Below are positions 46 to 58,022 of a stretch of 64,000 bases of DNA, in pieces (the stretch's first letter is position 1; each line of letters begins with the position of its first letter). The stretch comes from Candidatus Sericytochromatia bacterium (GTDB lineage: Bacteria; Cyanobacteriota; Sericytochromatia; S15B-MN24; VGJW01), in the NCBI GenBank assembly GCA_035285865.1, contig JAYKHS010000030.1:1-64000 (forward strand). The letters run 5' to 3'. Below the pieces are notes generated by a model. It ran no database searches. It was not told the origin of the DNA and saw only the letters and a program-made list of their open reading frames with translations. Both the position numbers and the translations under genes were made by a program.

Positions 46-118
46 GGGGGTATAGCTCAGCTGGTAGAGCATCGCCTTTGCAAGGCGAGGGTCAGCGGTT
101 CGAGCCCGCTTACCTCCA
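46..118 (+). tRNA. tRNA-Ala (TGC)
   Basis: Cloverleaf: acceptor GGGGGTA/TACCTCC with G3:U70, D-arm GCTC..GAGC, anticodon arm TCGCC-TT TGC AA-GGCGA (TGC 79-81), T-loop TTCGAGC. Confidence 0.97.
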
Positions 119-133
119 CCTGCCGGATCACGA

Positions 134-206
134 GGGGGTATAGCTCAGTTGGTAGAGCGCATCGTTCGCAATGATGAGGCCAGGGGTTCGACTCCCCTTA
201 CCTCCA
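134..206 (+). tRNA. tRNA-Ala (CGC)
   Basis: Cloverleaf: acceptor GGGGGTA/TACCTCC with G3:U70, anticodon arm CATCG-TT CGC AA-TGATG (CGC 167-169), T-arm AGGGG-TTCGACT-CCCCT. Confidence 0.96.
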
Positions 207-229
207 CCTGATAATCCGATTTATTCATC

Positions 230-306: not shown

Positions 307-840
307 CTACAGGGCACGCAGCAATGGTCGGCTGACGCCGAACTGGGTCGGATTGTCCTGGCTTGGCTGCGGCTCGGGCGTTCCGCCCACGGGCGTCTGG
401 CCGACAGCCGGCGTCTCGATGGGGGCCAAGGTCGGCGTAGGGGTTGGAGCCGGCCTGGGGGTTGGTGTGCCTCCCGATATGCTGCCCGCGGGCGGTGTCG
501 GGGTGACAACGATTGATGGCGGCGATGTCGTTGCAGCGGAGTCGGGGGTTGCCGTCGGCGCAGTCGTGACTGCTGGCGCAGGCGATGGTGTCGGGCTGCT
601 TGACGGCTCCGGGCTGGTGGTTCCGGGTGATGCGTCGGGGGAGCCGATCGGAAGCGGGCTGCTGCCGCTCGCGGTGGGTGAAACGACGGGACTCGGCGTG
701 GTTGTCGGTTTGGCGGTCGGCTTGGGCGTGGTCCGCTTCGGAGTGGCTGCCGTTACCGGGGCCTCCTCAGCGCAACCGACTGCCAGGAGCGGCAGGCTGG
801 CGGTCGCGGCGGCGAGCAGCAGGGTGGCCATGCGGGACAT
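307..840 (-). CDS. Pro/Thr-rich low-complexity lipoprotein (177 aa)
   Basis: Start moved to MSRMATLLL...LAVGC (lipobox); the remainder is PT/PS-rich; begins 10 nt after the stop of the upstream gene. Confidence 0.7.
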   Translation of the reverse strand: MSRMATLLLAAATASLPLLAVGCAEEAPVTAATPKRTTPKPTAKPTTTPSPVVSPTASGSSPLPIGSPDASPGTTSPEPSSSPTPSPAPAVTTAPTATPDSAATTSPPSIVVTPTPPAGSISGGTPTPRPAPTPTPTLAPIETPAVGQTPVGGTPEPQPSQDNPTQFGVSRPLLRAL

Positions 841-850
841 TTGGGGTTTC

Positions 851-3800
851 CTAGAAGATGGGGGCGTGCAGGCCCTGGCGGCGCAGGACCGGACTCCAAG
901 TCGAGGTGGAGATGTCGTAGATGTTGCCTGTCCCGGGCTGGGTCGCCACAAGGCGGTTGTCCGTCGGCACCAGCTCCAGGCCCCATCCCGACGACCCGGG
1001 CAGCGTTGCCCGTCCCGTCACCGTAAAGGTCCCGCCGGTGGTGTTCACGGAGTATATGCCGCCCACGGTGTTCAGGACGTGAAACTCTTCGCTGCCGGAT
1101 CGGACGGCGATGCCTGTCGGGTTGCCTACACTCCCGATGCTGCGGCCGTTCGTTCTCCCGGTCCCATAGGCCGTGATGTTCCAGCCCACGACGGCGCTGG
1201 TAGCGGCTCCATAAATCCAGTCGCCCAGCCGTTGGATTTCCCGCAGGTTCATCGCTCCGCGAGCCCCGACGGTATCGTGCTGGCGCGGCTGCGACCACGA
1301 CACCTTGTCGCCGTCATCAATGAAGTATTCAATGATGCCACAGCCGGTGCAGCCAATGGTGGAGGCGTATTGCCGCGGGGCGGCCGAACCCGTGGTGGAG
1401 GTCAGGTAGAACACACCGTCGCTTACCCTTGCCAGAACATCTCCATTGCTGAGTGATCGCACGCGAGACGGGCTGCCGTTGAAGACCACGTGCGCGGCGG
1501 ACGCGCCGCTGGGCGCCACGCGCCAGAGCGTCCGGGTCCCGTAGTCGGCGGCGTACAGGTTGCCGCCGGTGGTCGTCAGGCCCATCATCGACGTACCGGC
1601 ACCCGAGACGTTTATGCCGCCCGCATCGACCTGAACGGCCGACCCCGGGCTGGTGATCTTCCGGATGAAAGTGGTGCCCTGGTCGACGACGTAGAGGGCA
1701 CCGCCGAGGAGCGTCATCCCGTATGGGGTTCCCGTGAAGCCTGTGATGGCCGTGGCCGTGGGCACCGTTCCGGCCTGCAGGTCCAGACGCCAGACCTTGC
1801 CGTCCTTGCAGGAGACCCAAGCATAGCGACTGCCGTCGTAGACGAGATCGTAGACGAGATCCGGAAACAGGGCGGCACCTGATGGCCCGAGTGCCGGCGT
1901 ACGGTCCAATATCTCGTGACCGGAACCCGAGGCCGTGATCATCAGCAGCTTCCGGTCGTCGCGATCCAGCAGGAGGTGGCTGTTGCCACCGGAGGCCATC
2001 CGCCACAGCGTCTGGCCGAAGCCATTCCAGTCGTATGTGCCGTGGATGGCGTGACGCCAGAGTTTGAGGCCGTTCTGATCTGCCACCTGCAGGCCTGCGT
2101 ATCCATAGGGCTCGCCGATGGGCGTGCGCCACCAACTGTCCTGATAGATGCCTTCGCAGTTGAGTGCGCCGACGTAACGTGTGCTGCCATCGTCGCTGGT
2201 ATCAAGTGAGCCGGGCAGGCTGAGTCCGCTGACGATGGTCGAGCGGGCCGTTCCGAGCGCCGGATTGACCTCGGTCGCATTGCCGTTGTCCGAATGCGTC
2301 ACATGCAGCAGGCCCTGCCGCATGTTGAGGCCGTACGGTGCGGCGATGCCCGCGATTTGGGTGCGCGTGGTGTTGCCGTCGGCGTCCAGTTTCAGGATGG
2401 CGCCAGACTCCTGCAAGGCCACGAAGAGGTTCCCGCTGGAGTCGGCAGCGATGCCGCGCAGATAGGCCAGACCATAGGCCAGAATCTTGCGGTCGCCCGC
2501 GAGCGAGATGCGCTGCACCAGGGCGCGATCCTGATCGATGACATAGAGGTTGCCGGCGTTGTCCCTGGAGATGGAAGCAGGCGCACGGGTGGTGAGAAAG
2601 GGTTGTGCCCTCCTGTACCGGTCCACCTTGACGATGACGTTCTGCCCCGGGCTGGTGACGTAACAGGAGGCCTCGGTATCGATGGCGAGACCCGACGGAC
2701 CTGCCAGATAGGCCCAGTCAAGCATCGAGGGCGCCAGGGATCCGCTCTCACCGCTCGCGGGCTTGAACCGACGCACCCGGTCCGCAGACGGTTCGACAAC
2801 GTAGAGGTTACCCTCGAAGTCGAAGGCCATGGCCCGCGGCCCGGACAGGCCGGTGTAGGTCGCCAAGGCAGCCTGGGTCACGTTGCTGGTGCCGGACGCA
2901 GCTGCCCAGTTGACTCTGGCACGCACGACCCGATTGTTGCTGCCCTCCGAAACATACAGGTCTCCGTCCGGTCCCAGGGCCAGCGCCTGCGGATCCGTGA
3001 CGGTCATCCACGAGGCGTTGACCATCGTCCCGTCATCGCGCACCTGCGCGATACGACCGGTGCCTCCATCCGCGACATAAACGAAGTAGGGGCTCGCGGT
3101 CCGGCCTTCGGGATTGACCAGGATGGCCCGCGGATTGCTTAGGCCACGGTTGACGACACGAACGACTCCTTCGCCATCCACCGTCATCAGCGTGCCCTGA
3201 TCCGATGAGGCCGTCCATACCAACGTGCTGCCGTTGCTGCTGGTGTATACCGACGAGCGGCCATCGCGTGTCGTCACGCCGAAACTGTTCGTATAGGCGG
3301 TGATGCCCCGGATTCGGATCTGGATCAGGCCGGTGCGGGCTCCCGGTGGCACATCCACGAGCAGGTTCGTGGCGGTGCTGCCCTCCACGACCGGGGCCAC
3401 CACACCACCGGCGAAGGTCACCTCGACGGCATCCGGTTCGAGGTTCCGGCCCGTTAGCGTCACGCGGGTCCCGATGCCGCCCGAGGTGGGACTGATGGCA
3501 CGGTTGACCTCGAAGTTCGTCTGGGTGTTGGCGACCGCGCCGTTGCCACCAAGCACCAGCGCCTGGATGGGGTCCTGGTCGGCGATGACCGCGTTGACGA
3601 CCTGGGTGTAGAGCTCCTGATAGATGGCCGTCGGGAGCGAAAGAACCTCGCGGTAATCGCCGGGCGCCTGGCTCACGAGCTGGGGATCGAGCGCCCCCAT
3701 GAAGACGTTGGCCACGATAGGGTCGCCATCGAGCGTCTTCTGGCTGACGAAGAAGGCAATGGTCGTCGTGGACAGGCTGATGCTGATGGGGCCGGGTGTG

Positions 3801-4294
3801 GCCGACGTCAGGCTGGTCCAGCCCTTGGCCGTGAAGTCGTACCAAACGATGGTCCGCAGCCGCATGAGGTCGCCGCCCGCTTGGTTGGGCTGGGCATTGG
3901 GGCCATTGATGCCCTTGATGGCCTCCATGATGTACGGAACCGAGTAGCGTCCGTCTGCCTCCGGAACCGGCTGGAACGCGCTGCCGAAGGAGATCACGAA
4001 CGAACCGCTGGCATCTGCCAGAGACGTGCCCCGAGTCTCGCCGGAGGAGGACTCGATCAGGGAGACGGTGGCGCCACGCGCGAACTCGTCCAGAAGATTC
4101 GTCAGCTGGACGTGGTAGCCCCGAGAAGGTGCGAGGGTTCCCAAGAGCGAAGTCGTCGCTCCGGTGTTCGGGGCCGTGGCATGGGACACGGTCGAGTTTG
4201 TCGGGGCGCCACCGTCCGACTGCCGGATCGGGGGCACCGAACAGGCAGTCAGTGCCAGGATCAGGCACGCCGTCGTCAGGATTTTCGAGATCAT
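851..4294 (-). CDS. Large surface lipoprotein: conserved N-terminal domain, IPT/TIG domain, NHL/SMP-30-like beta-propeller repeats (1147 aa)
   Basis: Lipobox LTAC; IPT-like ISPTSGGIGTRVTLTGRNL...VDVPPGARTG; many P-x-(G/A)-(L/I)-A-x-D-x-x-G-x-L-Y-V repeats. Confidence 0.88.
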   Translation of the reverse strand: MISKILTTACLILALTACSVPPIRQSDGGAPTNSTVSHATAPNTGATTSLLGTLAPSRGYHVQLTNLLDEFARGATVSLIESSSGETRGTSLADASGSFVISFGSAFQPVPEADGRYSVPYIMEAIKGINGPNAQPNQAGGDLMRLRTIVWYDFTAKGWTSLTSATPGPISISLSTTTIAFFVSQKTLDGDPIVANVFMGALDPQLVSQAPGDYREVLSLPTAIYQELYTQVVNAVIADQDPIQALVLGGNGAVANTQTNFEVNRAISPTSGGIGTRVTLTGRNLEPDAVEVTFAGGVVAPVVEGSTATNLLVDVPPGARTGLIQIRIRGITAYTNSFGVTTRDGRSSVYTSSNGSTLVWTASSDQGTLMTVDGEGVVRVVNRGLSNPRAILVNPEGRTASPYFVYVADGGTGRIAQVRDDGTMVNASWMTVTDPQALALGPDGDLYVSEGSNNRVVRARVNWAAASGTSNVTQAALATYTGLSGPRAMAFDFEGNLYVVEPSADRVRRFKPASGESGSLAPSMLDWAYLAGPSGLAIDTEASCYVTSPGQNVIVKVDRYRRAQPFLTTRAPASISRDNAGNLYVIDQDRALVQRISLAGDRKILAYGLAYLRGIAADSSGNLFVALQESGAILKLDADGNTTRTQIAGIAAPYGLNMRQGLLHVTHSDNGNATEVNPALGTARSTIVSGLSLPGSLDTSDDGSTRYVGALNCEGIYQDSWWRTPIGEPYGYAGLQVADQNGLKLWRHAIHGTYDWNGFGQTLWRMASGGNSHLLLDRDDRKLLMITASGSGHEILDRTPALGPSGAALFPDLVYDLVYDGSRYAWVSCKDGKVWRLDLQAGTVPTATAITGFTGTPYGMTLLGGALYVVDQGTTFIRKITSPGSAVQVDAGGINVSGAGTSMMGLTTTGGNLYAADYGTRTLWRVAPSGASAAHVVFNGSPSRVRSLSNGDVLARVSDGVFYLTSTTGSAAPRQYASTIGCTGCGIIEYFIDDGDKVSWSQPRQHDTVGARGAMNLREIQRLGDWIYGAATSAVVGWNITAYGTGRTNGRSIGSVGNPTGIAVRSGSEEFHVLNTVGGIYSVNTTGGTFTVTGRATLPGSSGWGLELVPTDNRLVATQPGTGNIYDISTSTWSPVLRRQGLHAPIF

Positions 4295-4297
4295 CGG

Positions 4298-7200
4298 CTA
4301 CATCTCCGCCGCGCTGAGCCCGAAGGGCAGGATCTCCCGGGTACGCGTCGCGGGCACGTAGCGCTCGACGCGATGATGGCTGTAGACCGACTGGTAGAGC
4401 GACGAGCCATCGGGTTCCGCCCACATCCCCCACGTCCTGTAACTGTTGTCGACGCCGGGGAAGTTCTCTCCTCCGCCATCGGCCGCCACGCGCACCAGAC
4501 GCATGCCGTAGTGGCTCAGGATGTAGAACCTCCCCTGTGCATCCGAGGCAAAGGCGCCCACGCCGGGACTCCAGCAGTTGCCGGAGGCCGCCGAGTAGTG
4601 CCACTCCTGGCGACTTGCCCCGGTTCCGCTCCAGCGTCCGGTGACGTCGTTCGCACAAAGGCTGGTCGCATTTCCGTAGAGGTTCCCGTTGCTGTCGACC
4701 CCTGCGAGTTGTGGGCCAGACTGCCAGTCCGAAACGCCGATGAAGCGGTAGACCCAGTAGCCGTCGCTGTGGCGCGCCAGACGCAGGCGATCCGTGATCC
4801 AGAAATTGCCGTCGCCCCGCCACATGAAGTTCGGACCGTGGTAGTTGCTGTACCACGCCACGTCGAAGGAGTAGGTCGGGTCCAGCTTGCGCCCCGCGCC
4901 GGCAAGCACCACGATGCCGCCGTCGGTGTCGACGGCGATGTCGTTGTATCCGCCGAGGCCGTTGTAGATGCGTCCGTAGGATCCGCCCGCAGCGAAGGAT
5001 TGGATGCGACCGATGCCCTGGTCCATCGCCAGGACCATCGTGCCGTCCTTGATGTCCAGATTCCTCGGGCTGTCGCCGCCGGTGGACAGGCTACTCTCCT
5101 TGACGGCCGTCGCGGGGTTGATGGACGTGACGCGCGCCGCCCCGTTCTCGGCTACCCAGACGCGGTTCGTCACGGGGTCATAGACGATGCCGAGCGGGTT
5201 GGATAGGCCGGATACCACGGTCGGTCTCGGGATGCCGCTTGGGTTGTAGGAGGTCACGGTACCGGCAGCGGGGTTGCAGACCCATATAATCCCGCTCCCG
5301 TCGACCGCCACGTCCCTGGGACCCGTCAGGTTGGGGTCACGGTTGGCGTCGCAGAGGACCGTGACCTTGTTTACCGCGGTCGAGTTGCCGACGGTGGCGG
5401 CGTCTCCGGCGAGTTTGAGGATCCGGCGATCATCGGTGACGATGATGAAGGCATCCTTGTTTTCCGAATTGCTCTTGTCTCGTGCAATGCCGTTGTTGCG
5501 GATGAAGATGGACTCGTGTTGCTCGATGGCAGCTGACCAGTTCGTGACGTCGTAACTGATGATCCAGCGGTTGGACCGCCCGTACAGCCTGCCTTGGGCA
5601 TAGCTGATACCCGACATGCCGCCGATGCTCTTCAGGACGGCCGATGCCGCACCGGAACTGCGTTCGACACGTGAAAGGGTACCGTTGCCCCTGTTCGTGA
5701 CGTAGAAGCGGTCCCGACCGCCCTGGTTGTCGTAGGTCAGGCCGAAGGGCTTGTTGAATCCGCGGGCGACGGTCGCCAGCTCTCCGGTCGTAACATCCAC
5801 CTTGACGAGGGCATTGTTCGATTCGCTGAGCACGTAGAGGTCGTTGCCGACCTTGTGGATACCGGTGGGTGAGCTGAAGCCGCTGGCGTAGATGGACGAG
5901 TCCCCGAGCGGCGTGATGCGGTAGACGTTGTTCGAGGTGTTATCGATGGCATAGACGTAGCCGGCACGATCCGTGACCAATCCGCCGGGACTCGGCATGT
6001 CGGCGAAGGGCGAGACCTTGCCGGTTGCGTCCCGACGATAGAGCGAGTTGCCCTTGTTGTTGGAAACATAGAGATTGCCCAGCGTGTCGAAGGAAATGCC
6101 CCACGGGGCCGTGAGACCCTCCATGAATGCAGTACCGTTGGCTGCACTGCCGTCATTCAGAATCTCGAGGCGAACCACGTTGTTGCCGCCCAAGTTCGCG
6201 ACATACAAGGCCCCATCCACCCCGAAGGTCGCACCTCTGGGTTGGTTCAGGGCCGTCCCGGTCAATGCGACCTGAACGGGTGCAGCCTGAGGGCTGTCGA
6301 TGCGGTAGATGCGGCCTGCCGTGCCATCCGTAATCCATGCACGGCCATCGCCGTCGAAAGCAATGCCTCTGGGGTCAGCGATGGTGCCTGAAGTGCCGAA
6401 GTCGACGACTCCGGCACCGGGGTTGTACTGGTCCAGGCTGATGATACCTTTCTTGGCCCCTGCACATGTGACATAGAGCCGGCCAGCCTTGAGACAGAGG
6501 GCACGCGGCGCGGTGAGGTTCTTCGCGAAGGGCTTGATGCGCCCCTGGGGATCGACGAGGACGACGGTCCCGAAGGTCTCGTTGGCCACGAACAGGTTGC
6601 CGAGGCTGTCCACCGCCTCGTGGCCCGAGGACAGCGCGAGGAAGAAGGGCGGCGTCACCAGCGTGCGATTGCCCTGGGTGACCGTGATCTCGCCGCTGAC
6701 AGCCGCCGCGGGCACAGTCACCGTCAGGCGTGACAGATCGCTCGAGACGGCCTTGACCGTGGCCGGTACGGAGCTGCCCGAGAGTCCCCGGAAGCTGACG
6801 ATATTGTCCGTCGGGTTCTCGGCAAATCCGGACCCCACGATGGAGATGTCCCGGTTTACGAATTGCGTGTCCGGTTGCAGGGCACCCACGGTGAAGGCGA
6901 TGGACGGGGTGTAGAGCGTATTGCCCAGAGGGTCGGCGGGATCGAGCAGGATGAACATGAAGGGGTCGCGATCCTGCGCCAGGGTTTGGCTTACCCGATT
7001 GTAGGTGTCATTGACCAGAGCATCTGGCAGCAGATTCCCGTAGAGGTTGTAGAACGGATCGGGACCACCCGCCGGGTTCGGTTCCGGGGACAGCGCATTG
7101 ATCATGAGTTCCGGATCCAGAGTCCTTCCGGAGCTCGGAGCCATCTGGCTGCGCAGGCTGAGCAAAAGGGTCAGGGCCGTGGTCGTCCGGTTGAGGATCA

Positions 7201-7660
7201 GCAAGTCATTCTGGCTGATCGAGTTCCAGAAGGTTCCGGTATAGCGGGCCAGCGTGCGCACCCGGACGATATCGGCACCGACGCGATTAGGCAGGTCTGT
7301 CCCGGTCTTCAGGCCCTTGATGGCATCAAGGTAATAGATGGTGTCAGCCTTCGGGGTGAATCCGCCCGCAAACTTCAGATTGAAGGCACCGTTTGACTCG
7401 GTGACGGTTGTTGCCACGGTGAAACCGGTGGCAACCTCGATGAGCGAGACGGTGGCCCTGATTGCGATTTCGGAGCCAATGGAAGCCTGGGTCGTTCGCG
7501 CAATCCCGAGGGCTTCGAGGTCCACCTGGCCGCGCAGGTCAGCGATGGCCGCGCGGGTCTCGCCGCTGGTCGATGCCACTGGCGCGAGGCCGACGCGCGT
7601 ACAGGCCATAAGCAGGCCGAGCAGCACGACCTGAGTCAACCTTGCCAAGGGCCTGCCCAT
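4298..7660 (-). CDS. Large surface lipoprotein, paralogue of 851..4294 (N-domain, IPT/TIG, NHL-like propellers; 1120 aa)
   Basis: RBS GGGAGG; lipobox LMAC; repeats such as PWGISFDTLGNLYVSN and PRDVAVDGSGIIWV. Confidence 0.9.
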   Translation of the reverse strand: MGRPLARLTQVVLLGLLMACTRVGLAPVASTSGETRAAIADLRGQVDLEALGIARTTQASIGSEIAIRATVSLIEVATGFTVATTVTESNGAFNLKFAGGFTPKADTIYYLDAIKGLKTGTDLPNRVGADIVRVRTLARYTGTFWNSISQNDLLILNRTTTALTLLLSLRSQMAPSSGRTLDPELMINALSPEPNPAGGPDPFYNLYGNLLPDALVNDTYNRVSQTLAQDRDPFMFILLDPADPLGNTLYTPSIAFTVGALQPDTQFVNRDISIVGSGFAENPTDNIVSFRGLSGSSVPATVKAVSSDLSRLTVTVPAAAVSGEITVTQGNRTLVTPPFFLALSSGHEAVDSLGNLFVANETFGTVVLVDPQGRIKPFAKNLTAPRALCLKAGRLYVTCAGAKKGIISLDQYNPGAGVVDFGTSGTIADPRGIAFDGDGRAWITDGTAGRIYRIDSPQAAPVQVALTGTALNQPRGATFGVDGALYVANLGGNNVVRLEILNDGSAANGTAFMEGLTAPWGISFDTLGNLYVSNNKGNSLYRRDATGKVSPFADMPSPGGLVTDRAGYVYAIDNTSNNVYRITPLGDSSIYASGFSSPTGIHKVGNDLYVLSESNNALVKVDVTTGELATVARGFNKPFGLTYDNQGGRDRFYVTNRGNGTLSRVERSSGAASAVLKSIGGMSGISYAQGRLYGRSNRWIISYDVTNWSAAIEQHESIFIRNNGIARDKSNSENKDAFIIVTDDRRILKLAGDAATVGNSTAVNKVTVLCDANRDPNLTGPRDVAVDGSGIIWVCNPAAGTVTSYNPSGIPRPTVVSGLSNPLGIVYDPVTNRVWVAENGAARVTSINPATAVKESSLSTGGDSPRNLDIKDGTMVLAMDQGIGRIQSFAAGGSYGRIYNGLGGYNDIAVDTDGGIVVLAGAGRKLDPTYSFDVAWYSNYHGPNFMWRGDGNFWITDRLRLARHSDGYWVYRFIGVSDWQSGPQLAGVDSNGNLYGNATSLCANDVTGRWSGTGASRQEWHYSAASGNCWSPGVGAFASDAQGRFYILSHYGMRLVRVAADGGGENFPGVDNSYRTWGMWAEPDGSSLYQSVYSHHRVERYVPATRTREILPFGLSAAEM

Positions 7661-7766
7661 CGCACCCTCCCACGTGGTCGTCTTGTACCACCTGCAAGCA
7701 GCCTGATCGGTCTTGCTTACAAATTGACAACAAGGGATTGCGACACGTCGGATGCGCCGGAGAGCA

Positions 7767-7797
7767 CGAAGCGCAGACCCTTGGGGTCTGCGCTTCG
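7767..7797 (-). terminator. Perfect 14-bp hairpin downstream of the CLec-fold gene (terminator-like, no clear U-tract)
   Basis: CGAAGCGCAGACCC-TTG-GGGTCTGCGCTTCG, 14 nt beyond the stop at 7812. Confidence 0.55.
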
Positions 7798-7811
7798 CTT
7801 GTGGCAGGGGC

Positions 7812-8936
7812 CTAGAATCTCAGCGAAGGGCGGAAGCCCTGATCGGGCGCTGTGTAGCTGTCGTTCCGGTTGATGCAGAGCAGCCACATGCCGGCCTGGG
7901 GCACCTCATTGAAGTGGCCCCGATCATAAGATCCTCCGCGATTCGTGTAGAAGTTGGCAGACTCCGAAACATTGCCGGCACCCTCGTGGGTGTAGTCGGC
8001 TTTGCCCGGGGCACTCTGGCCAAGCGCATGGTAGGCGTCGCCACGGAACCAAGCTTCGCTGGGCAGGTTGGTCGTGGCCCCGACGACGCCATACATGCGC
8101 AGGACAGGGTCCGTGGACAAGGCCGCGACGTAGCCTGGGGCGGTGCCGCCCATGCCACTGCCTTCGCCTTGGACGATGTACTGGTTGCCCTCCAGATGCA
8201 GGTTGGAGTTCCATTCACGCACCCCGCCAACCAGGTCGAACACGCCGTCGGTGCGGCCGGTGTGACTCGTGAGGTTGACGTCACCCGTCCATCCGGGTGA
8301 CGTGCCGGATCCCGAGAGACTGGCTTTGCCATCCGGGGCCGTGAAGGTCACGTCGTTTTGCTCGCCATCCACGCCGAAGAGCGTGTTGCCCCGGATATCC
8401 ACGCCGTTGATTGCGGTCCAGACCGCCAGAGCGGTCCACTCATCGGCGCCGATCAGGAAACTCGTGCCGGGCGCCATGGCTTCGGCTGCCTGCCTGGCTT
8501 GGGCGAAGGAGACATCGGTCCACGGCAGAGTGCCCTTGGCGACCACCACCGACTTGCCGTCGGAGGCCTTGGCCGCCTCGTACTTGGCCGCATAGAAGCC
8601 ACCAAAGACCGCCGGCGACACCTCGGTGCCGGCAAAGCCGGCCGGAACCTCCTTGACCCAAGCTCCGCGGGGCTTGCCGTCTCCGGCACGCAACAACTGG
8701 TAGGCGGCGAATCGCGGAATCCAGACAAACTCCTGATCCCCATGAGCGGTCCTCAGGACATAGGGGTGGGTCACGGACGGGTTCCCCTTGTCGTCAGGTG
8801 CGAGACGAGGCGTTCCAAGTTCGATGCCGGGAAGGGTCCCGGTGCCCGATTGAGGAAGGACGGCGGCCTGTCCGGCGCAACCGGCTACCACACTTGCCAA
8901 GCCGATCAGACCCAGCGCACGCGTACGACGATTCAT
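7812..8936 (-). CDS. Lipoprotein with C-type-lectin / FGE-sulfatase-like fold (374 aa)
   Basis: Lipobox VAGC; GFYAAKYEA, GVFDLVGGVREW, RGGSY...GFRP terminus; the catalytic Cys motif of true FGE is absent. Confidence 0.85.
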   Translation of the reverse strand: MNRRTRALGLIGLASVVAGCAGQAAVLPQSGTGTLPGIELGTPRLAPDDKGNPSVTHPYVLRTAHGDQEFVWIPRFAAYQLLRAGDGKPRGAWVKEVPAGFAGTEVSPAVFGGFYAAKYEAAKASDGKSVVVAKGTLPWTDVSFAQARQAAEAMAPGTSFLIGADEWTALAVWTAINGVDIRGNTLFGVDGEQNDVTFTAPDGKASLSGSGTSPGWTGDVNLTSHTGRTDGVFDLVGGVREWNSNLHLEGNQYIVQGEGSGMGGTAPGYVAALSTDPVLRMYGVVGATTNLPSEAWFRGDAYHALGQSAPGKADYTHEGAGNVSESANFYTNRGGSYDRGHFNEVPQAGMWLLCINRNDSYTAPDQGFRPSLRF

Positions 8937-8992
8937 TCTGCTCAGCCCCCTTGCGATATCCTGTCAGGACTCCACGTCACCCGCTGGTTGCG

Positions 8993-10126
8993 TCAGTAAC
9001 GCAGCGCGGGGCGGAAGCCCATCCAGTTGGACTGGAAGTCCTCGGTGCGGTTCACGCAGAGCAACCACATGCCTGCCTGTGCGGGCTCGTCGTGATGACC
9101 GCGATCGAAGCTGCCGCCGCGACCACCACGATAGGTCAGCACCGCTCCATCGGGAGGCGTGGCGGTGTGGGTGCCGCTGTTGTCGTGGCCCTGGGTCAGG
9201 CCGCCACCGTGGAAGTAGTCCGACCGGAAGAAGGGGACGGCAGTCTGCTGGGTCCGCCCCGCGACGCCGAATTGGCGCAGCAGGGGGTCCGTGTGCAGCG
9301 AGGCGACGTAGCCCGGAACCGTTGCGCCGACGTCGAGGGGCTGGTTGTCGATCATCAGCTCGTAACCGACCATCGACAGCGCGCCGTCCCACTCCTGGAT
9401 GTTGCCGACAAGATCCAAGACTCCGTCTGCACGCCCCGTGTGGCTGGTCAGGTTGATGCCGGGAGCCCAGGACGTGTCCTTGGCCGTGCCGGTAAGGGCA
9501 GCCTCGCCCACGACTTTCTGATCCCATGTGATCCCCGGACGTTCGGCATCCACACCGGCGAGGGTGTTGCCACGGACGTCGACCCCGTGCAGTTCGGACC
9601 AGACGGCAAGGGCGGTCCACTCGTCGCCGCGCATCAGATGGCTGACGCCGGGAGCCAGAGCCTTGGAAGCGGCATTGGCCTCGAGCCACGTGGTCGCCCA
9701 CGGCTGTCCTCCCCGGACGACGGCGGCCGAGGACTGAGTCCCGTCGCTGCGGCTCGCTTCGTACTTGGCGACATAGAAGCCGCCGAACTCCTGCCTCGCC
9801 CAGTCCACGCCGGGGATGCCCTGGGGCTGGGTGCCTACCCACGTGCCGACCGGACGATCCTTGTGTCCAGCCTGACTCGGACGCACCAACTGATACGCCT
9901 CGAAGCGCGGAATCCACGTGAACACGTTGTCCACGCCGTTGGCCCGCAGGGTGAAATCATGGTGAACTGCCGGGTCCCCGGAATCTCCGGGAGCCAAACG
10001 AACGGCCCCGGTCGTGGCGGCCGCAGTGGTCGGCGTGGCTTGCGGGCTCTGGGCCGCGCAGCCGGCTACGACTCCGGCCAACGCAAGACTGAGCCAGGCC
10101 GACGACCTGAGTCCAGAACGGTTCAT
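8993..10126 (-). CDS. Lipoprotein with C-type-lectin / FGE-sulfatase-like fold, tandem paralogue (377 aa)
   Basis: Start moved to ATG 10126 (RBS GGAGGT); lipobox VAGC; GFYVAKYEA, GVLDLVGNIQEW, RGGSF...GFRPALRY. Confidence 0.85.
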   Translation of the reverse strand: MNRSGLRSSAWLSLALAGVVAGCAAQSPQATPTTAAATTGAVRLAPGDSGDPAVHHDFTLRANGVDNVFTWIPRFEAYQLVRPSQAGHKDRPVGTWVGTQPQGIPGVDWARQEFGGFYVAKYEASRSDGTQSSAAVVRGGQPWATTWLEANAASKALAPGVSHLMRGDEWTALAVWSELHGVDVRGNTLAGVDAERPGITWDQKVVGEAALTGTAKDTSWAPGINLTSHTGRADGVLDLVGNIQEWDGALSMVGYELMIDNQPLDVGATVPGYVASLHTDPLLRQFGVAGRTQQTAVPFFRSDYFHGGGLTQGHDNSGTHTATPPDGAVLTYRGGRGGSFDRGHHDEPAQAGMWLLCVNRTEDFQSNWMGFRPALRY

Positions 10127-10172
10127 GATGACCTCCGATACCAGCTTGCTTCCGAGAAACTTCATACCCAAG

Positions 10173-11228
10173 TCAGGGGATGACCTTCACGCTTTGCGTG
10201 GCCAGGAGCGAGCCTGCCTTGGCCATCACGTGGAAGTCCCCTGTCTGGGAGGCGTTCATGATCTTGCCGCCCACGACAAGCAGGGGAGGTGCCCCGTGGC
10301 CGACGGCGTGATTCGTGTGATCCGTGCCCGCTCCGCCATCTCCCGATGCCGTTTCCCAGAGGGAATCGAAGCTGGTATAGGAGCGATCGTCGGCATCGTA
10401 GCCGACGAGCGGGATGACGATGTCCGAGGTGCCCTGCTTGACCTCGATGGGCCCCGTGGCAATCTCGATGCGAATCAGTTTGGCCACGTCAGCCAGCGAG
10501 ACTGCCTGCCGTTCTCCGACCTGGATGACGATCTTGTCGCGTGTGGCTTCATTGGGCATTTCGAAGTAGAAGGCTTCGTTCGAAAACTTCAGGAGCTTGC
10601 TGGCAGCGACTTCGATACCGCCGACGAAGACCCTGAAGGACACGGTGTCGTCCGTCGGGTATCCCGTGCCCCTGACCTCGACCTGCTGTCCCTGCGCCGC
10701 CGCGAAGTAGCTGAAACTGGCGATGGAAGGCGGATCAAGCGGTTTGGGGGTGGGTGTCGCAGCGGCCGGGAAGACCAGCCTGACCGAGCCGATGGTGCCG
10801 GACTCGAGGGTGATGGTCTCTGCCTTTGTGGCGAGGACCAGACCGTCGCTACGCACGGCTGTCGCCGTGACGGTGACGGAGCCGGCCGGAATTCGGTCCA
10901 TCTGAGCACTGGTGCCGAACTGGGCTTCGACCTCCTTGTCGAAGCCATCGCGGGCCTGGACGCGGAACTTGATGGCGGCCGTGGTTGCCGGAATCGCGGC
11001 CACCTGGCGGTCGGGCCACTTGATCCGAAACACCAGCGTGCCTGTGCCGGCCGGCAGGGCGGGAGCCGAGGTTGCCGGGCCTGCGGAAAGTTCCAACTCC
11101 TGTCCGAAACCGGGCATCCGGACTGCCGAGATGGAGTCCGTGCCGGAGGGGTGCACGATGCTGCAAGCAGAGACGGCCAAGGCGCCGCCCAGCAGGAAAC
11201 TGCCCCAACGAGTGCGGGCCATGATCAC
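10173..11228 (-). CDS. Lipoprotein with beta-sandwich (transthyretin/IPT-like) domains (351 aa)
   Basis: Lipobox VSAC; beta-rich; PPSIASFS...QQVEVRGTGY IPT-like segment; ATGA overlap with the upstream gene. Confidence 0.75.
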   Translation of the reverse strand: MIMARTRWGSFLLGGALAVSACSIVHPSGTDSISAVRMPGFGQELELSAGPATSAPALPAGTGTLVFRIKWPDRQVAAIPATTAAIKFRVQARDGFDKEVEAQFGTSAQMDRIPAGSVTVTATAVRSDGLVLATKAETITLESGTIGSVRLVFPAAATPTPKPLDPPSIASFSYFAAAQGQQVEVRGTGYPTDDTVSFRVFVGGIEVAASKLLKFSNEAFYFEMPNEATRDKIVIQVGERQAVSLADVAKLIRIEIATGPIEVKQGTSDIVIPLVGYDADDRSYTSFDSLWETASGDGGAGTDHTNHAVGHGAPPLLVVGGKIMNASQTGDFHVMAKAGSLLATQSVKVIP

Positions 11229-11911
11229 TCAACCTCCATGTTCAGCGAGCCGACGGCCTCGATGACGACGGGCACGAGGGAGTAGGTCGATTCATCCGGC
11301 GCGATGATCCGGACGTTGCCCGTGCCTTCGGACTTGGCCGTCACGACGCCATCGGTGCTCACGACCGCGATGTTGGCCGGATCAACCGAAAACTTGGCAT
11401 TCAGGACGACCTGTCCCCGATTGGTCAGCCACTCGAAGTTGAGCGCTTCAAACGACTTGATGCCGGGTGCCGGTGTGCCCGTGGTGGGCGGCACCGTCAG
11501 TTTGATGGGTGTCACGTTGCGCACCGTCAGCGAAACGTAGCGAACCGGCGGAGGTGTCGGCAGCGGTTCGGGTGTCGGGGTCGGAGCCTCCGTGACCTCC
11601 GGGGTAGCCGTGCCGCCACCCGTTGATGATCCACCCCCGTCCGGCGTAGCGTTGCCGCCAACTTCGGTTGATGTCGTACCGGTGGGTGTCGGAGTCGGAG
11701 TCGCCTCTGTTTCGATGCTTCCGCCGGCCCCGCCCGGTCTTTGCGTGGCCGCAGGCGTCGCTGCCTTCGCTGGTGCCACCGTGGGTCTACGGGTAGCCGT
11801 GGTTGTCGGGGCCTGCACGGTGGTGGCACCGGCACAGGCCACGAGGCCGGCCAAGGAGGCCGCCAACAGGGCGCTCAGACTCGAGCGCCTGAGCGAGAGG
11901 AACCGGAACAT
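11225..11911 (-). CDS. Lipoprotein with PT-rich linker and C-terminal Ig-like (Big_2-type) domain (228 aa)
   Basis: Lipobox LVAC; FSVDPANIAVVSTDGVVTAKSEGTGNVRI resembles Big_2; RBS GAGG. Confidence 0.78.
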   Translation of the reverse strand: MFRFLSLRRSSLSALLAASLAGLVACAGATTVQAPTTTATRRPTVAPAKAATPAATQRPGGAGGSIETEATPTPTPTGTTSTEVGGNATPDGGGSSTGGGTATPEVTEAPTPTPEPLPTPPPVRYVSLTVRNVTPIKLTVPPTTGTPAPGIKSFEALNFEWLTNRGQVVLNAKFSVDPANIAVVSTDGVVTAKSEGTGNVRIIAPDESTYSLVPVVIEAVGSLNMEVE

Positions 11912-11940
11912 CGAGCGTGACCTCGCGTGGCTGCTGGGAA

Positions 11941-12930
11941 TCAGAAAGAGGTACCGGGCAACGTGCCCGAGACCTTGGGGACGACATCACAGTTGGTCAC
12001 GGCCTTGCCGAGGCCCGTGGAGACGGATAGGAGGCCGCTGGATGCATAGGCGGGCAAGGTCACCTCGATGCGGTTGCTCGCGAAGGCCTGGATGGGCAGG
12101 ATGGCTCCGTTGAGCGTGATCGACACGCGCGCGGAGCTTGAGCCGAAGTCCGCACCGTTGATCACGATGCGGCTGCCGGCGGTGGCCGGATTGGGGTCGA
12201 GGCTGCTGATCGAGGGGGGCTTCAGGCCGGCCGAAGCCCGAAGGACGGGGCCGTTGTCATAGTCGAGCGACGCGATGGGGTCGACGTTGTTTTCGATGAC
12301 CGTCGAGACCAGTGCCAAGGCCGTGCTGATGTCCGATTGCGACATGATGGACGCAGAAATGCCGGGTGCTCCAAGCGATCCGTCCTGCATCGTGATGATC
12401 TGGCTCATCAGGCCCATCCGGGCGTTCGTATCCTGGCGCAACAGGTCGGACAGGATCGAGATGGTCGTGGACAGTCGACTTACGTCCACCGAAAACGGAC
12501 CGGTCAGCGAGTCCGCCACGGTGTTGTTGGCGAACATGATCAGCGTCCTGACGCGCACGGCGTCATAACCCACCGCGTTGTTGTTGAGCCCCTTGATGGC
12601 TTCAAGATAGTAGGGATCCGGACCCGGGACAAAACTCTTGTCCCAGACCAGTTGGAAGACCCCGTTGCTGTCCGTAACCGTCGTGGCCTTGGTCTCGTTG
12701 GTCGCCGTATCGATCAAGGAGACCGTCGCGGCCGTGGCCACCTCCACCATCGTGGCTTGATTCTTTCGGGCTGGCGGCCGCTCGTCCAAGACCACCCGGC
12801 CACGGATTACGCCGCCGGCCTGCGGTACGGATCCGGGCAGCGGCCCAGCGCACCCCCAGAGCGCGACCGCCGCGAGCAGTGCTGTCGCACGGGCCAGCGG
12901 AACCCCGGGTGCATCGGACCGAAGCATCAT
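11941..12930 (-). CDS. Lipoprotein: conserved N-terminal domain plus one IPT/TIG domain (minimal family member)
   Basis: Start moved to ATG 12930; lipobox LWGC; ATVSLID..TTVTDSNGVF..YYLEAIKG..RVRT; PSISSLDPNPATAGSRIVINGADFG. Confidence 0.82.
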   Translation of the reverse strand: MMLRSDAPGVPLARATALLAAVALWGCAGPLPGSVPQAGGVIRGRVVLDERPPARKNQATMVEVATAATVSLIDTATNETKATTVTDSNGVFQLVWDKSFVPGPDPYYLEAIKGLNNNAVGYDAVRVRTLIMFANNTVADSLTGPFSVDVSRLSTTISILSDLLRQDTNARMGLMSQIITMQDGSLGAPGISASIMSQSDISTALALVSTVIENNVDPIASLDYDNGPVLRASAGLKPPSISSLDPNPATAGSRIVINGADFGSSSARVSITLNGAILPIQAFASNRIEVTLPAYASSGLLSVSTGLGKAVTNCDVVPKVSGTLPGTSF

Positions 12931-13110
12931 GCCTGCGATATACCCGAAGCGGGCGAGTTCTTCCAAGTCGACGGGCTTTTCTTGCTAAAGGCCTGCCAGG
13001 TCTGGGGAATCTCTCCCGCGGCGTGCAAGAGAGGCTCTGCTTCGGGTAAGGGAAACTTGTCTGGTCCCTTGTCCAGGCTGCCGTGCTGTCCCCCCTCGGG
13101 AGGTCGTTCC

Positions 13111-15381
13111 TTGCGCGCATTCCTCAAGCGGCTGTCGGTCCTGTCCGTCGTGACGGCCATGTTGGTTGCCTGCACCGCGCCCGGACAGTCCTCCGGGGCT
13201 GGCGCGCCGGCCCCGGAGGATGCTTCGGTCAGCCAGTCCCCGACGATCTCCGACTCGATTCGCGGCACCGTGGACCTTGCTGCGCTCGCGTCTGGGCCCT
13301 CGTCGCGGGAGGTGGCGGCCCTGCCCAGCGAGATTATCCGGGCAGCCACGCTCGTGATGATCGACCCTGAGACGAACAGGACGCTCTCGGCCACCGTCAC
13401 GCGCTCGGACGGCTCGTTTGATCTGGTGCCGCCCGTCGGTTTGGTGGCCGGCAACGTCTATGTGCTCGAGGCATCCAAGGCAGTCGGTGCGATCGGAGGC
13501 GTTCAGACGAACCTCCGGGTCCGTACGATGCTGCGGATTGTTTCAGGCAGATGGACGTCCATCTCCGGTTCCGCCATCCGGATCGACCCCTTCACGACGG
13601 CCGTGGCCTTGGCCAGCCAGCAGAACCCGGATGCCGTGCCGTGGGTGCGGACGATGGGCAAGGTGCTGGTGACGAGCGAGGGCAGCATGTTCGAGGGCAG
13701 CATCGCCTACGACGGTGTCTCCGACGCGGATCTGCTCAACTTGGTCCTGACCATCCGGAACCTGCTCGGTGCGGACCTTGATCCGGTGGCCAACATCCGG
13801 TCCCTGCGCCCGGTCATCTCGGGTGTCTCACGTCCCAAGGGGCGTCCGGGAGAACAGCTCATCATCGAGGGTGAAGGCTTCAGTCCCTTCTCGAGCGACC
13901 TGACCGTGGCCTTCGGGGCAGTGGGGGCGACCATCCGCTCGGCACGCAGCAATCGACTCGTCGTGGATGTCCCAGCCGCCTCGGGCATCGTTTCGCTGAC
14001 GGTTCGCACCCGTCTTGGGCTGTCGAACTCGATTCAGTTCACGGTCGACAACGATCCTCTGGTCGTGGTTTCGGCGGCCTTGCCGGCAGCGGGCCTGCCG
14101 GACACCGTCATCAACATCGCGGGTTCCGGCTTTGACGAGAACAAGGCGCTCAACGAGGTCTACTTCGGCCTGCTCAAGGTCACGCCCGTGACGGCCAGCC
14201 CGAATCTGCTGATCGTCAAGGTGCCCGACGGGGCGGCCACGGGACAGTTGATCGTGAAGTCTCCGCTGGGGACCAGCAACCCGCTCTACTTCCAGGTTCC
14301 CTACCGCATCGACCAGTGCCCGACCTCCGGCATGCCGGACACCGCCATCTCGATACTTGGCGTGTTCCCATCCGCCTCGGGGGCCGTCTCCTTCAACGGC
14401 ACCAACGGTACCGTCCTGACGTGGGCCAAGGACAAAATCACGGTTCGGGTGCCCAACGGATTCTCGGAAGGTGCGCTTCAGATCACGTCGGGTGCCGTCG
14501 TGATCGACGGGCCATCCTTCAAGCTCAAGCAGGGCAACCTCGGGGCCTGGGTTCAGGTTCCGGGGACCTATCGGGACGGCAGCTCCTACATGTCCAGTTG
14601 GCAACTCAACGAGGCAGCCTACCTGAAGCCCTACTACAACTCGGGCATTCTGCGGGTGGCCTACGACGTGAGCGGCAACGTCTCCAGCGTGACGGACGTC
14701 GGCGGCCTCGGCCTGACCTACAACCACTACATCAAGGGTGGCATCGTTCTGGGAAGCTGGGCCTACTGGTTCAACGACTACAGCACCAGCTACCCGTGTT
14801 ACGCGCGGCGGGCGCCTGTCGCCAACGGCGTGATCGGCAACTTCAGCTACTTCCAGAGCCCGCCTACTTACTACTGGGCAGATGCCGAGGAAATCGACGG
14901 GCGGTTGTACCTCATCGACACGTGCTATGGCAACTCGCTGTGGGCCACCATCAACAACGACGGAACCTACGGGGGTTGGAACAGCATCAATGTCGGAGCC
15001 GGCGATTTCCGGCATGGCGCCTTGGTCCGCGTGAAGAACTGGCTGTATCGAATCGGCGGGCAAAACTACAGCAGTAACTGTGCCCGCGCTCCCATCGGCA
15101 ACGGTGGGGTGCTGGGCAGTTTCTCGACCTATGGCTCCTTGCCGGACAACTTCTACGGCGCTTCTGCCGTTGTCGTGGGTAAGTACCTGTATGCGATGGC
15201 TTCCCAGGCCAACAGTTGGTACCGGGCCGAGGTCGATGGCAACGGCAATCTGGGCGGGTGGGTCCGCCAGGCCGGGGGCATGCCGAACACCGAGTATCAC
15301 TCGGACCGTTCGTGGGTGAAGGGCGATTACGTCTACTACTACAGCCGCTTCGGTCTGGCACAGAACCAGATCATCGACTGA
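13111..15381 (+). CDS. Lipoprotein: conserved N-domain, three IPT/TIG domains, C-terminal Kelch-like Tyr/Asn/Gly-rich propeller (756 aa)
   Basis: Start moved to TTG 13111 after GGGAGG; lipobox LVAC; IPT repeats; NGxLGxW-type and VVGKYLY Kelch-like blades. Confidence 0.85.
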   Translation: MRAFLKRLSVLSVVTAMLVACTAPGQSSGAGAPAPEDASVSQSPTISDSIRGTVDLAALASGPSSREVAALPSEIIRAATLVMIDPETNRTLSATVTRSDGSFDLVPPVGLVAGNVYVLEASKAVGAIGGVQTNLRVRTMLRIVSGRWTSISGSAIRIDPFTTAVALASQQNPDAVPWVRTMGKVLVTSEGSMFEGSIAYDGVSDADLLNLVLTIRNLLGADLDPVANIRSLRPVISGVSRPKGRPGEQLIIEGEGFSPFSSDLTVAFGAVGATIRSARSNRLVVDVPAASGIVSLTVRTRLGLSNSIQFTVDNDPLVVVSAALPAAGLPDTVINIAGSGFDENKALNEVYFGLLKVTPVTASPNLLIVKVPDGAATGQLIVKSPLGTSNPLYFQVPYRIDQCPTSGMPDTAISILGVFPSASGAVSFNGTNGTVLTWAKDKITVRVPNGFSEGALQITSGAVVIDGPSFKLKQGNLGAWVQVPGTYRDGSSYMSSWQLNEAAYLKPYYNSGILRVAYDVSGNVSSVTDVGGLGLTYNHYIKGGIVLGSWAYWFNDYSTSYPCYARRAPVANGVIGNFSYFQSPPTYYWADAEEIDGRLYLIDTCYGNSLWATINNDGTYGGWNSINVGAGDFRHGALVRVKNWLYRIGGQNYSSNCARAPIGNGGVLGSFSTYGSLPDNFYGASAVVVGKYLYAMASQANSWYRAEVDGNGNLGGWVRQAGGMPNTEYHSDRSWVKGDYVYYYSRFGLAQNQIID

Positions 15382-15394
15382 CAGGAGCAGGAAA

Positions 15395-17671
15395 GTGTTG
15401 ATCGTTCGGTCACTGAGTGTCCTTGTCGCGCTCACCCTTGCCGTGGCGGGGTGTCAGGGCAGGCCCGCATCCTTGTCACTCGCGCAGACTGCTGAGAACG
15501 GCACCTCCACGCAACGACAGGAGGCGACGCTTGCGGGACCGGCCCTCGAAGGTCGGGCCATCTGGCCGGATCGGGCCGGCCAGAACACGTCGGACATCCT
15601 GCGGGGCGCGACGATCGCGTTGGTCGATCCGGATTCCAACTACACCCTGTCAGCCACGAGCCTGAAGGCGGACGGCACCTTCAGTTTGCCGGTGCCCTTG
15701 GGCATCTCGACTTCCACGGTCTACATCCTGGAAGGCGTCAAGGGCTACAGGCAGGGACAGCCGGGGGGGGAGATCTCGCGCCTTAGGACGCTGGTGCGCT
15801 ACACCGGATCGGGTTGGGCCTCCATTTCCGGAAACTCTCTCATCCTGGATGGTCTTACGACCGCGGTGACGCAGATTGCGCTGCTCTACCCCGCGGACAT
15901 CAGCCGCGCCGGTGTGCTTTCCAAGGTGCTCCAGACGTCCGGGGGGACAGTCCTCAACACGAATCCCGTGCTGCCGAACCATCCTGATTCCGAAATTCTC
16001 CTGACGGCCCAGCTGGTTCGGCAGGCGCTTTCCGCGGACCGGGATCCCATCGCCGTCGTCGATGCCTCGCGCATCTCGCTGCTGAGCCTGAGCGCCACCC
16101 GCGTCACGCCGGGGGACCTGCTGGCGATTCGTGGCCGTGGCTTCGGCCCCACGCCATCCTCGAACACCGTGCTCTTCGGAACGGCCACGGCAAGTGTGGC
16201 GACCGTCGTGCCCGGTCTGCTCCACGCCATCGTGCCCAGCGACATCCGCGGGAACTTCCAGTTGCAGGTACGGTCAGCGCTGGGCCTCTCCGCTGCCATT
16301 CCGGTATTCGTGGATGGTCCCCCGCCGATCCAGCTCAACAGCATCCAGCCTCCCGTGGGGCTGCCGGGACAGACGCTCACGCTTACGGGCCGGGGATTCT
16401 CGTCCACTGCCTCTGCGAACGAAGTGTATTTCGGTCTCGTCAAGGCCACGCCACTGCAGGCAAGCGCCAACAGCCTGGTGGTGAAGGTGCCCAGCGGCCA
16501 GTTGTCCTGCAATGTCGCCGTGCGCGCCAACGGGGTGACCAGCAACCCGTTCTGGTTCGAGATTCCCTACCGCGTCACTTCTGCACCGGACACGGGCATG
16601 GCCGGCCAGACCATTACCGTGAAGGGCCTATTCCCGCCGACCAAAAACAACTCGTCGGCCGTCAGCTTCAACAATTTAGACGGCATATTGCAGTCGTGGA
16701 CCGATACTGAGATTCGCGTGATGGTGCCGTTCGGAGTGACTCAGGGAGCCATCGCCGTCAAGTTCGACGGCGTGACGTTGACCGGTCCGACTTTTACCCC
16801 CAAGGACGGCAATCTGGGCGGATGGTCCCTGGTGAACGGGACCTACCAGAACTACAACAGCTACTACACCGGGTTCATGGGCGAAAAGGCCCTGTTCCTC
16901 CGTGCCTACAGCTCGGGTTACAACCATTACCGGGTCCGGTTCGACGACGCCGGTGCAGTCGCGGGTCTGGACGTCTGGCCGTCGCTCAACAACATGCCGT
17001 ACAACCACTACTTCAAGGGCGGTATCCTGCTGGGCAACTGGATGTACTGGTTCAACGACGGCCAGAACTACGCCTCGGTCTATCGTGCACCCTACGATCG
17101 TTCCAACGACAACCTGGGCCAGTTCACCTATTACGGTGGCATGCCGACGGCCGGATACAATCTGGCCGTTCAGGTCGACAACAGGGTCTTCGTCTACGAC
17201 ATGGTGGGCAGTTGGACCAAGGTGCGCTATGCCACCATCACCAACGATGGTTCTCTGGGTGGCTGGACCAACGAGTCGGGCGGTTGGGGCAACTACATTT
17301 ATGGCGACGTCATCCGGATCGGCAACTACCTCTACCGGTTCGGCGGCTCCGGAGACCCCAACGGATGCTCCCGAGCGCCCATCAGCAACGGGCTGGTCGG
17401 GCAGTTCTCTTACTACCGGGCCATGCCCAACTACTACGAGGGCGCCTCTGCCGCAGTGGTCGGCAACTACGTCTACGTGATTTCGGCCAACTACAACGGC
17501 ATCTGGTGCCGGGCACGCATCAGTGGTCAGGGTGAGCTAGGGGGCTGGGAGAATATGTCCGGCAACACGGCACCCAACCCTTACAACCACGTCGAACGGC
17601 TCTACGTGAAGGGTGGCTACGCCTACTATTTCAATTACTACGGCCTCTATCAGGCGGCTGTCCTGAACTAG
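15395..17671 (+). CDS. Lipoprotein, paralogue of 13111..15381 (N-domain, three IPT/TIG, Kelch-like propeller; 758 aa)
   Basis: RBS AGGAG; lipobox VAGC; colinear similarity, e.g. YNHY(I/F)KGGI(V/L)LG(S/N)W(A/M)YWFND. Confidence 0.88.
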   Translation: MLIVRSLSVLVALTLAVAGCQGRPASLSLAQTAENGTSTQRQEATLAGPALEGRAIWPDRAGQNTSDILRGATIALVDPDSNYTLSATSLKADGTFSLPVPLGISTSTVYILEGVKGYRQGQPGGEISRLRTLVRYTGSGWASISGNSLILDGLTTAVTQIALLYPADISRAGVLSKVLQTSGGTVLNTNPVLPNHPDSEILLTAQLVRQALSADRDPIAVVDASRISLLSLSATRVTPGDLLAIRGRGFGPTPSSNTVLFGTATASVATVVPGLLHAIVPSDIRGNFQLQVRSALGLSAAIPVFVDGPPPIQLNSIQPPVGLPGQTLTLTGRGFSSTASANEVYFGLVKATPLQASANSLVVKVPSGQLSCNVAVRANGVTSNPFWFEIPYRVTSAPDTGMAGQTITVKGLFPPTKNNSSAVSFNNLDGILQSWTDTEIRVMVPFGVTQGAIAVKFDGVTLTGPTFTPKDGNLGGWSLVNGTYQNYNSYYTGFMGEKALFLRAYSSGYNHYRVRFDDAGAVAGLDVWPSLNNMPYNHYFKGGILLGNWMYWFNDGQNYASVYRAPYDRSNDNLGQFTYYGGMPTAGYNLAVQVDNRVFVYDMVGSWTKVRYATITNDGSLGGWTNESGGWGNYIYGDVIRIGNYLYRFGGSGDPNGCSRAPISNGLVGQFSYYRAMPNYYEGASAAVVGNYVYVISANYNGIWCRARISGQGELGGWENMSGNTAPNPYNHVERLYVKGGYAYYFNYYGLYQAAVLN

Positions 17672-58016: not shown

Positions 58017-58022
58017 GGAAGG

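Follow-up and report, generated by a model that had tools for sequence, protein, structure and literature searches.

Type V pili are built from lipidated subunits, each of which is cut in the loop that follows its first strand. The strand lost in this way is replaced by a C-terminal donor strand, supplied by a stalk or anchor pilin to the next subunit; tip pilins have no donor. These pili are described as unique to Bacteroidia (PMC13655056). Here we describe an array of ten neighbouring lipoprotein genes (positions 307 to 17671) in a 64,000-nucleotide stretch of a Candidatus Sericytochromatia bacterium (G000:C30:1-64000, called the window below; the host genome, G000, is 2.8 Mb and 83% complete). 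Sericytochromatia are a non-photosynthetic sister class of cyanobacteria. Five of the ten proteins carry a common N-terminal domain, here named class I, and five are without it. We think it probable, judging from sequence patterns and predicted models, that class I proteins are linked by a comparable cut-and-swap step with stalks able to chain. The domain, its motifs, the tail mimicry, the match between tails and classes and the order of the genes are seen in the sequences, the fold is predicted, and the surface exposure, the cutting, the insertion, the chain length and any adhesion are what we infer.

In the arrangement that we propose, the class I domain would serve as a strand-exchange socket: it opens with a beta-strand that is lipidated, and the conserved loop behind this strand would be cut. 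The tail of a headless protein, a copy of that first strand, would replace the first strand in the next subunit. The headless protein of the array (11941..12930, protein C) would be a stalk and, because it has both socket and tail, could chain with itself. The four head-bearing proteins (851..4294, 4298..7660, 13111..15381 and 15395..17671, called A, B, D and E) have a socket only and so would cap the chain as tips, and the last-added subunit would stay in the membrane via its own lipidated first strand. A pair of genes without the class I domain (10173..11228 and 11225..11911, class II below) would work alike but read a sequence code of its own, for the most part as pairs of an anchor and its partner. 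A wider proposal, which we put forward tentatively and with some doubt, is that this is an independent lipoprotein strand-exchange pilus of Sericytochromatia, with IPT stalks, two unrelated sockets, orthogonal strand codes and a single protease that cuts the loops of both. Any of dozens of tip adhesins could then be shown on one type of stalk, and adaptors (class I socket plus class II tail) could join the codes.

An initial annotation of the window, made from the sequence alone, had proposed that proteins A to E share a domain after the lipobox. This proves correct: the five open reading frames (ORFs) are present, their domains align, and a single profile finds all five. Pairwise BLASTP, with the database size set to 1e6, gives expect values (E) of 2e-7 to 4e-25 among the pairs that match; A and D have no direct match and are linked via B, C and E. 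The profile, built from 124 rows outside the host genus, finds the five array copies plus four more in the genome at E 1e-27 to 1e-48. Profiles of the N-half and the C-half, also trained without the host genus, each retrieve exactly the same nine copies; three further host ORFs match generic sandwich strands only, at E 4e-4 or worse. The domain is about 175-200 amino acids long and lies close to the lipid anchor, with a lipobox at most 62 residues before it in 137 of the 148 distinct hits in fetched loci.

The nearest described family is PF13620 (carboxypeptidase regulatory-like/transthyretin-like), whose fold the first ~115 residues match weakly (Z 5-6). Across 142 class I domains, 41 touch this family at E up to 0.01 (best 1e-4). 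For protein C the match covers residues 66-94 only, at 17.6 bits against a cut-off of 32.3 for a model of about 82 residues, and the other four array proteins have none. Such matches cover some 30-60 residues, whereas the C-half (TTA, D-x-D-P) is family-specific: its profile alone finds the nine copies and only these, which goes against the refuting case named in the initial annotation, a mere generic carboxypeptidase-regulatory-like sandwich. No Pfam family names the domain (142 domains searched), an NCBIfam search returned nothing relevant, the best match in a PDB sequence search has E 0.15, and the matches in the Atlas are hypothetical proteins or leads only.

The presumed lineage specificity is also supported. 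Class I domains occur in 25 of 41 other Sericytochromatia genomes, with 77 matches in one of them (G011) and 42 in another (G070), and in 0 of 209 other genomes of the phylum. Among Bacteroidota, where at most 11 candidates were scored per genome, 14 of 301 genomes give weak partial matches confined to model positions 3-76.

AlphaFold models of protein C (predicted local distance difference test score, pLDDT, 91) and of the domain of protein D (88.5) place the same elements in the same order: each begins with a strand, which leads through a low-confidence loop and a short helix into a beta-sandwich and then a helical half. The first strand lies within the confident sandwich, and the loop has a pLDDT of about 60-77. 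The predicted sandwich is weakly transthyretin-like (best Z 6.2, root-mean-square deviation (rmsd) 2.8, 79 aligned). A fold search with the domain alone gave no clear match, and none for its helical half, which does not in itself make it a new fold, and searches with full-length protein C returned IPT matches only. In the transthyretin topology strand 1 is flanked on both sides; by analogy with that topology, its removal here would be expected to leave a groove.

The first strand has the consensus [LIV]-x-G-x-[VIL], and its Gly is invariant over the 142 domains; in protein C it lies at 12787..12810 (minus strand), the predicted strand E7-13 of the model. The loop that follows carries the motif R-x-x-Q-A (R 61%, Q 73%, A 87% over the same domains), which in protein C reads R-x-x-Q-A-T and sits in the low-confidence loop at 12751..12768 (minus strand), a putative cut site. 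A general second cut in all lipoproteins was also considered and rejected: the pattern [AVTSI]-[QK]-A is at chance level in 191 other lipoprotein candidates (25 observed, 28 expected).

Class I members are either headed or headless, and the headless ones have 1-9 IPT domains and mostly a short tail. In protein C the tail contains a pentapeptide (11959..11973, minus strand) of the form hydrophobic-x-G-x-hydrophobic, in register with the first strand, which is our putative donor strand. To quantify the likeness we use a matrix made from the N-terminal strands only. With this matrix the last 14 residues of 25 headless members score above those of 85 headed members (p=1e-5). This comparison leaves out six near-duplicates from the same genus, as well as members truncated at a locus end and those of intermediate length. 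The same matrix, applied to separately fetched sequences (complete entries only, with one of the 13 headless a near-copy of a training row), again places 13 headless above 30 headed members (p=0.003); they also score higher than 29 unrelated proteins that end in an IPT domain (p=0.005). The tail Gly is present in 22 of 24 aligned tails. In the training set a first tail pattern, written post hoc, picks out 20 of the 21 tails, none of the 4 headless members that are tailless and 4 of the 85 headed ones. Since up to 9 IPT domains lie ahead of the tails, the tails would be too far from their own domain to reach it. The C-termini of proteins A and B and their relatives (G-L-x-x-P-x-like) are presumably the closing strand of the NHL propeller and not donors.

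The strict loop motif is found in 19 of 21 tail-bearing headless members, so these look like cut acceptors as well as donors, and this favours chains over pairs for class I. G011 also holds one candidate class I anchor-like gene. It belongs to an ordered run (L075:2693-13227 and L076) of a 7-IPT headless gene, a 3-IPT headless gene, two headed genes and the anchor-like gene with its class I tail, then a similar run with a 5-IPT member. In the same genome the tailless headless proteins L054, L063, L071 and L074 form one tree branch, each beside a distinct small lipoprotein.

A second donor/acceptor pair is found among the array genes without the class I domain. The class II acceptor-like lipoprotein (10173..11228, minus strand) has an N-domain (10761-11054) that opens with a strand (11016-11045) and an R-x-x-x-A loop (10995-11012), followed by an IPT domain; three search rounds with this domain gave 39 hits, 11 on contigs of the host genome. 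Class II domains thus begin much as class I domains do, with a strand and then a loop of the form R-x-x-[QA]-x, yet no homology between the two classes was detected (probability 0.9% over 16 columns). The gene directly upstream, 11225..11911 (minus strand), encodes an anchor-like lipoprotein with a Pro/Thr linker and a Big-like domain, and at its C-terminus a tail (11228-11257) imitates the strand with which the protein encoded by the next gene begins. This is a general tendency: of the genes directly upstream of class II acceptors, 21 of 32 end in the class II tail pattern, compared with 45 of 2499 called genes, a pattern that was written after the tails had been viewed. An independent class II matrix puts 13 of 25 upstream genes above the genome 95th percentile (p=8e-8); here 26 of 36 hits were parsed and one had no neighbour. 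The tails of class I fit their own code better: 6 of 21 exceed the 95th percentile when scored with the class I matrix, and 2 of 21 when scored with that of class II. Of the 21 pattern-bearing upstream genes, 19, the window gene among them, have neither acceptor domain nor loop motif, as their sequences would be expected to look if they were anchors.

The classes may also be joined. Two class I proteins of G011 score high on the class II matrix, L070 above the 99th and L066 above the 95th percentile, and so may be adaptors. Obligate coupling of stalk and class II genes was considered as well and is unsupported by the G011 loci. The initial annotation had offered anchoring, export or polymerisation as the role of the shared domain in a surface display system; of these, linking or polymerisation is favoured by the donor-like tails and the second donor/acceptor pair. 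That interpretation is therefore partly supported, with surface exposure presumed.

How does this system compare with type V pili, such as the FimA/Mfa1 stalk, FimB/Mfa2 anchor and tip pilins of P. gingivalis? In both, the precursors are lipoproteins (here at sequence level), and a conserved loop follows the first strand of the first domain; this domain is transthyretin-like in type V pilins and gives weak transthyretin-like fold matches here (best Z 6.2). A donor-like C-terminus stands on headless and anchor-like members and is absent from tips in both, here as a sequence pattern, and in both the anchors are without the loop motif. The conserved R-x-x-Q-A loop sits at the position of the type V cut site and is thus a putative cut site, from which proteins A and E deviate. 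The differences are equally clear. Type V pili belong to Bacteroidia and the class I system to Sericytochromatia, a different phylum. Type V pilins have two transthyretin-like domains, whereas class I proteins have one sandwich plus a helical half and then IPT domains: in the stalk-like protein C the helical half is followed by an IPT domain (Z 13.6 to an IPT) and a coil tail, with no second transthyretin-like domain. The type V donor is a long strand flipped out of the C-terminal domain, where class I proteins have a short free tail. The class I/II system also differs from type V pili in its pair of unrelated acceptor domains, each with its own code, in having tip paralogues by the dozen in a genome, and in that no gingipain was found in the host genome. 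Type V pilin Pfam families match 0 of 142 class I domains at E 0.01, and PF06321 has 0 hits in the 83% complete host genome, with a positive control in B. thetaiotaomicron. Our reading of these sequence comparisons is that the class I system may work like a type V pilus and yet is not a member of the type V family, because it lacks the second transthyretin-like domain, the family match and the gingipain and lies outside the host range.

Two other described systems share individual parts. Bacteroides surface glycan-binding lipoproteins (PDB 3hrp, 3tc9, 4hw6) have a lipid anchor, an IPT stalk and a propeller head in common with the headed proteins and are the top IPT fold matches; the match is limited to the IPT domain and the class I domain is unmatched. 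The Bacteroidetes lipoprotein export signal is an acidic patch after the lipidated Cys (PMC5080379). At least two acidic residues after the Cys, putatively a similar signal, occur in 10 of 19 anchor-like proteins and in none of the 137 class I or 28 class II proteins; the patch is absent from all acceptors examined and from the window anchor at 11225. Judging by titles and the starts of abstracts, we found no published description of such a system for Sericytochromatia or among donor-strand pili.

The same data must be weighed against other explanations. Strand donation could yield only pairs or short chains in gene order, the headless member being a one-to-one spacer for one head protein, with no fibre. 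Class II genes do occur mostly as an anchor gene plus an acceptor gene, the G011 locus with its 7-IPT and 3-IPT headless, two headed and anchor-like genes reads as a chain of fixed order, and IPT repeats already supply length. We nevertheless consider this unlikely for class I: the loop motif is commoner in headless than in headed members (19/21 vs 43/84), whereas a never-cut base would not need the loop, and by eye there is no obvious partner-specific divergence of the tails. It is less probable still that the domain has a passive part, as a base near the membrane or a lattice unit similar to an S-layer, with loop motif and tails acting as export or sorting signals. The up to 77 copies per genome, the helical half with no counterpart in type V pilins and a weak S-layer match (SlaA/B, Z 5.8) that ranks above the fimbrial protein would suit such a base, as would an apparent N-terminal sorting signal in the form of the acidic residues found after the Cys of anchors and of no acceptors. 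It leaves unexplained, though, why each tail resembles the first strand of the class to which it belongs, with the invariant Gly in register, and why headed members have none. Very improbable, in our judgement, is a loop cut that only sheds adhesins or lectins from their lipid anchor with no re-linking. The motif does resemble the small-x-Ala site of signal peptidase I, and head-only lipoproteins without the domain stand in the same operon; the predicted site follows the first strand of the sandwich, however, so a cut alone would free nothing unless that strand were displaced, and the tails are again unaccounted for.

Linking by cut-and-swap thus remains our preferred explanation, and a number of observations count against it. 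The Bacteroidales fimbrial protein 3r4r is matched only at Z 4.5, rank 44, with an rmsd of 3.6 over 97 aligned. The tail mimic is five residues long, and the median class I tail score (1.6) lies below the genome 95th percentile (3.1). Among new entries the post-hoc tail pattern recurs in no more than 7 of 14 headless ones, including a truncated fragment matched by chance, vs 5 of 34 headed ones. Four headless members are tailless, the strict loop motif is present in just 43 of 84 headed ones (proteins A and E deviate in the window), a class I anchor was not found in the host genome, and class II genes stand in 6 of 10 G011 loci with a stalk vs 8 of 20 without. The loop-cutting protease adds to this list. 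A clostripain-like C11 peptidase with a lipobox (G000:C5:45775-47127) is a weak candidate; members of its family occur in 45 of 47 genomes of the class, in up to 10 copies, and C11 peptidases prefer Arg. It is absent from G005 and G007, which both have the class I domain, and present in genomes without the domain. A gingipain (C25) occurs in 1 of 31 genomes searched, and the host genome is not that one; an extra signal peptidase I was not found in G000, G011 or G015. As these three genomes have a single copy each, a dedicated extra signal peptidase I is rejected as the loop cutter.

The stalks and heads are as the initial annotation had described them. Pfam TIG counts one IPT domain each in the proteins at 851, 4298 and 11941 and three each in those at 13111 and 15395. 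The two heads at 851 and 4298 match NHL/Vgb/SGL propeller models in Pfam, the two at 13111 and 15395 have no Pfam match and are called Kelch-like from a Pfam-Kelch-positive relative (E 6e-11 and 1e-7), and protein C has no head. In a chosen sample of 23 members the Pfam heads include NHL/teneurin-type propellers, Kelch, FGE-sulfatase, CBM4/9 plus LamG, pentapeptide repeats, leucine-rich-repeat-like and Big_5 domains, and several are unnamed. The idea that heads are swappable stands over evolutionary time only. On a quick domain tree of 120 rows head types change 35 times, against a minimum of 26 and a shuffled mean of 78, with a few forced swaps (in one head cluster NHL and LamG heads are joined in error); rapid head shuffling is unsupported, since heads cluster on this tree.

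The array consists of two divergent operons, one with eight genes on the minus strand (12930 to 307) and one with two on the plus strand (13111 and 15395), separated by 180 bp (12931-13110). Sequence inspection finds a hydrophobic stretch ending in a lipobox Cys in all ten coding sequences, as had been claimed. On the minus strand, 307..831 encodes a Pro/Thr-rich lipoprotein with two Glu just after the Cys, no tail and no folded domain recognised by Pfam. The tip-like protein A (851..4294) has its class I domain at 3560-4156, a deviating loop motif with no Q-A, one IPT domain (3272-3517), NHL-type propellers and no tail. The tip-like protein B (4298..7660) has its class I domain at 6953-7546, a canonical loop motif at 7481-7501, one IPT domain, NHL-type propellers and no tail. 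Next come two paralogous lipoproteins (~45% identical) that consist of an FGE-sulfatase-like head alone, 7812..8936 and 8993..10126; in G011 such heads are fused to the class I domain, and these fused heads are matched at E 1e-38 to 1e-47 and 1e-47 to 1e-62. The pair (7812-10126) is kept as a pair in G003 and G004. After the class II acceptor and its anchor follows the stalk-like protein C (11941..12930), with its class I domain at 12268-12816, one IPT domain (11980-12219) and the donor-like tail. On the plus strand the tip-like proteins D (13111..15381, class I domain 13249-13794) and E (15395..17671, class I domain 15536-16057, deviating loop motif) each have three IPT domains, a Kelch-like head and no tail.

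Synteny in G003 extends over 9 of the 10 genes; its contig ends before the position of the 307 gene, and the comparison covers 851..17671. In G004 the Kelch-like, stalk-like and class II genes and the FGE-like pair are kept together and the NHL pair is elsewhere, so the array appears to be a composite of modules. Directly beyond the array end lie two tRNA-Ala genes (TGC and CGC, window 46-208), a possible insertion site; a scan of Rfam gave these two tRNAs only, promoter and terminator counts are at chance level, and the host assembly has no 16S gene. Further along the window, the stretch 17750-23202 starts with a GH15-like protein (Pfam), followed by what we take to be a lipase-like lipoprotein and a polyhydroxyalkanoate-like cluster, and 56065-62062 presumably holds an Rrf2 regulator and then a suf-like iron-sulfur assembly operon.

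Elsewhere in the genome, a second lipoprotein array of about 12 kb (G000:C28:187769-208867; L002, L003) has a class I stalk and tip with several class II acceptors and anchors. It is flanked by what we presume to be an rpoB-like gene and an unsplit rpoC-like gene of 1887 aa; rpoB and rpoC are normally adjacent. A third lipoprotein family in this genome (ORF starts C2:58788, C3:66096, C4:110432, C5:99840 and C30:175550) begins with a sandwich-like region and carries a long loop of N-x-A-G repeats, which in some members ends in R/V-x-x-A; it is possibly another acceptor class.

If the proposed linking is true, lipoprotein cut-and-swap assembly would exist in the cyanobacterial phylum, made from unrelated parts, and this route would either have arisen more than once or be much older. 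It would give a function to a large protein family of an uncultured class, with 77 copies in one genome. It would also provide a short tail/socket pair with two orthogonal codes, which could be tested with recombinant proteins.

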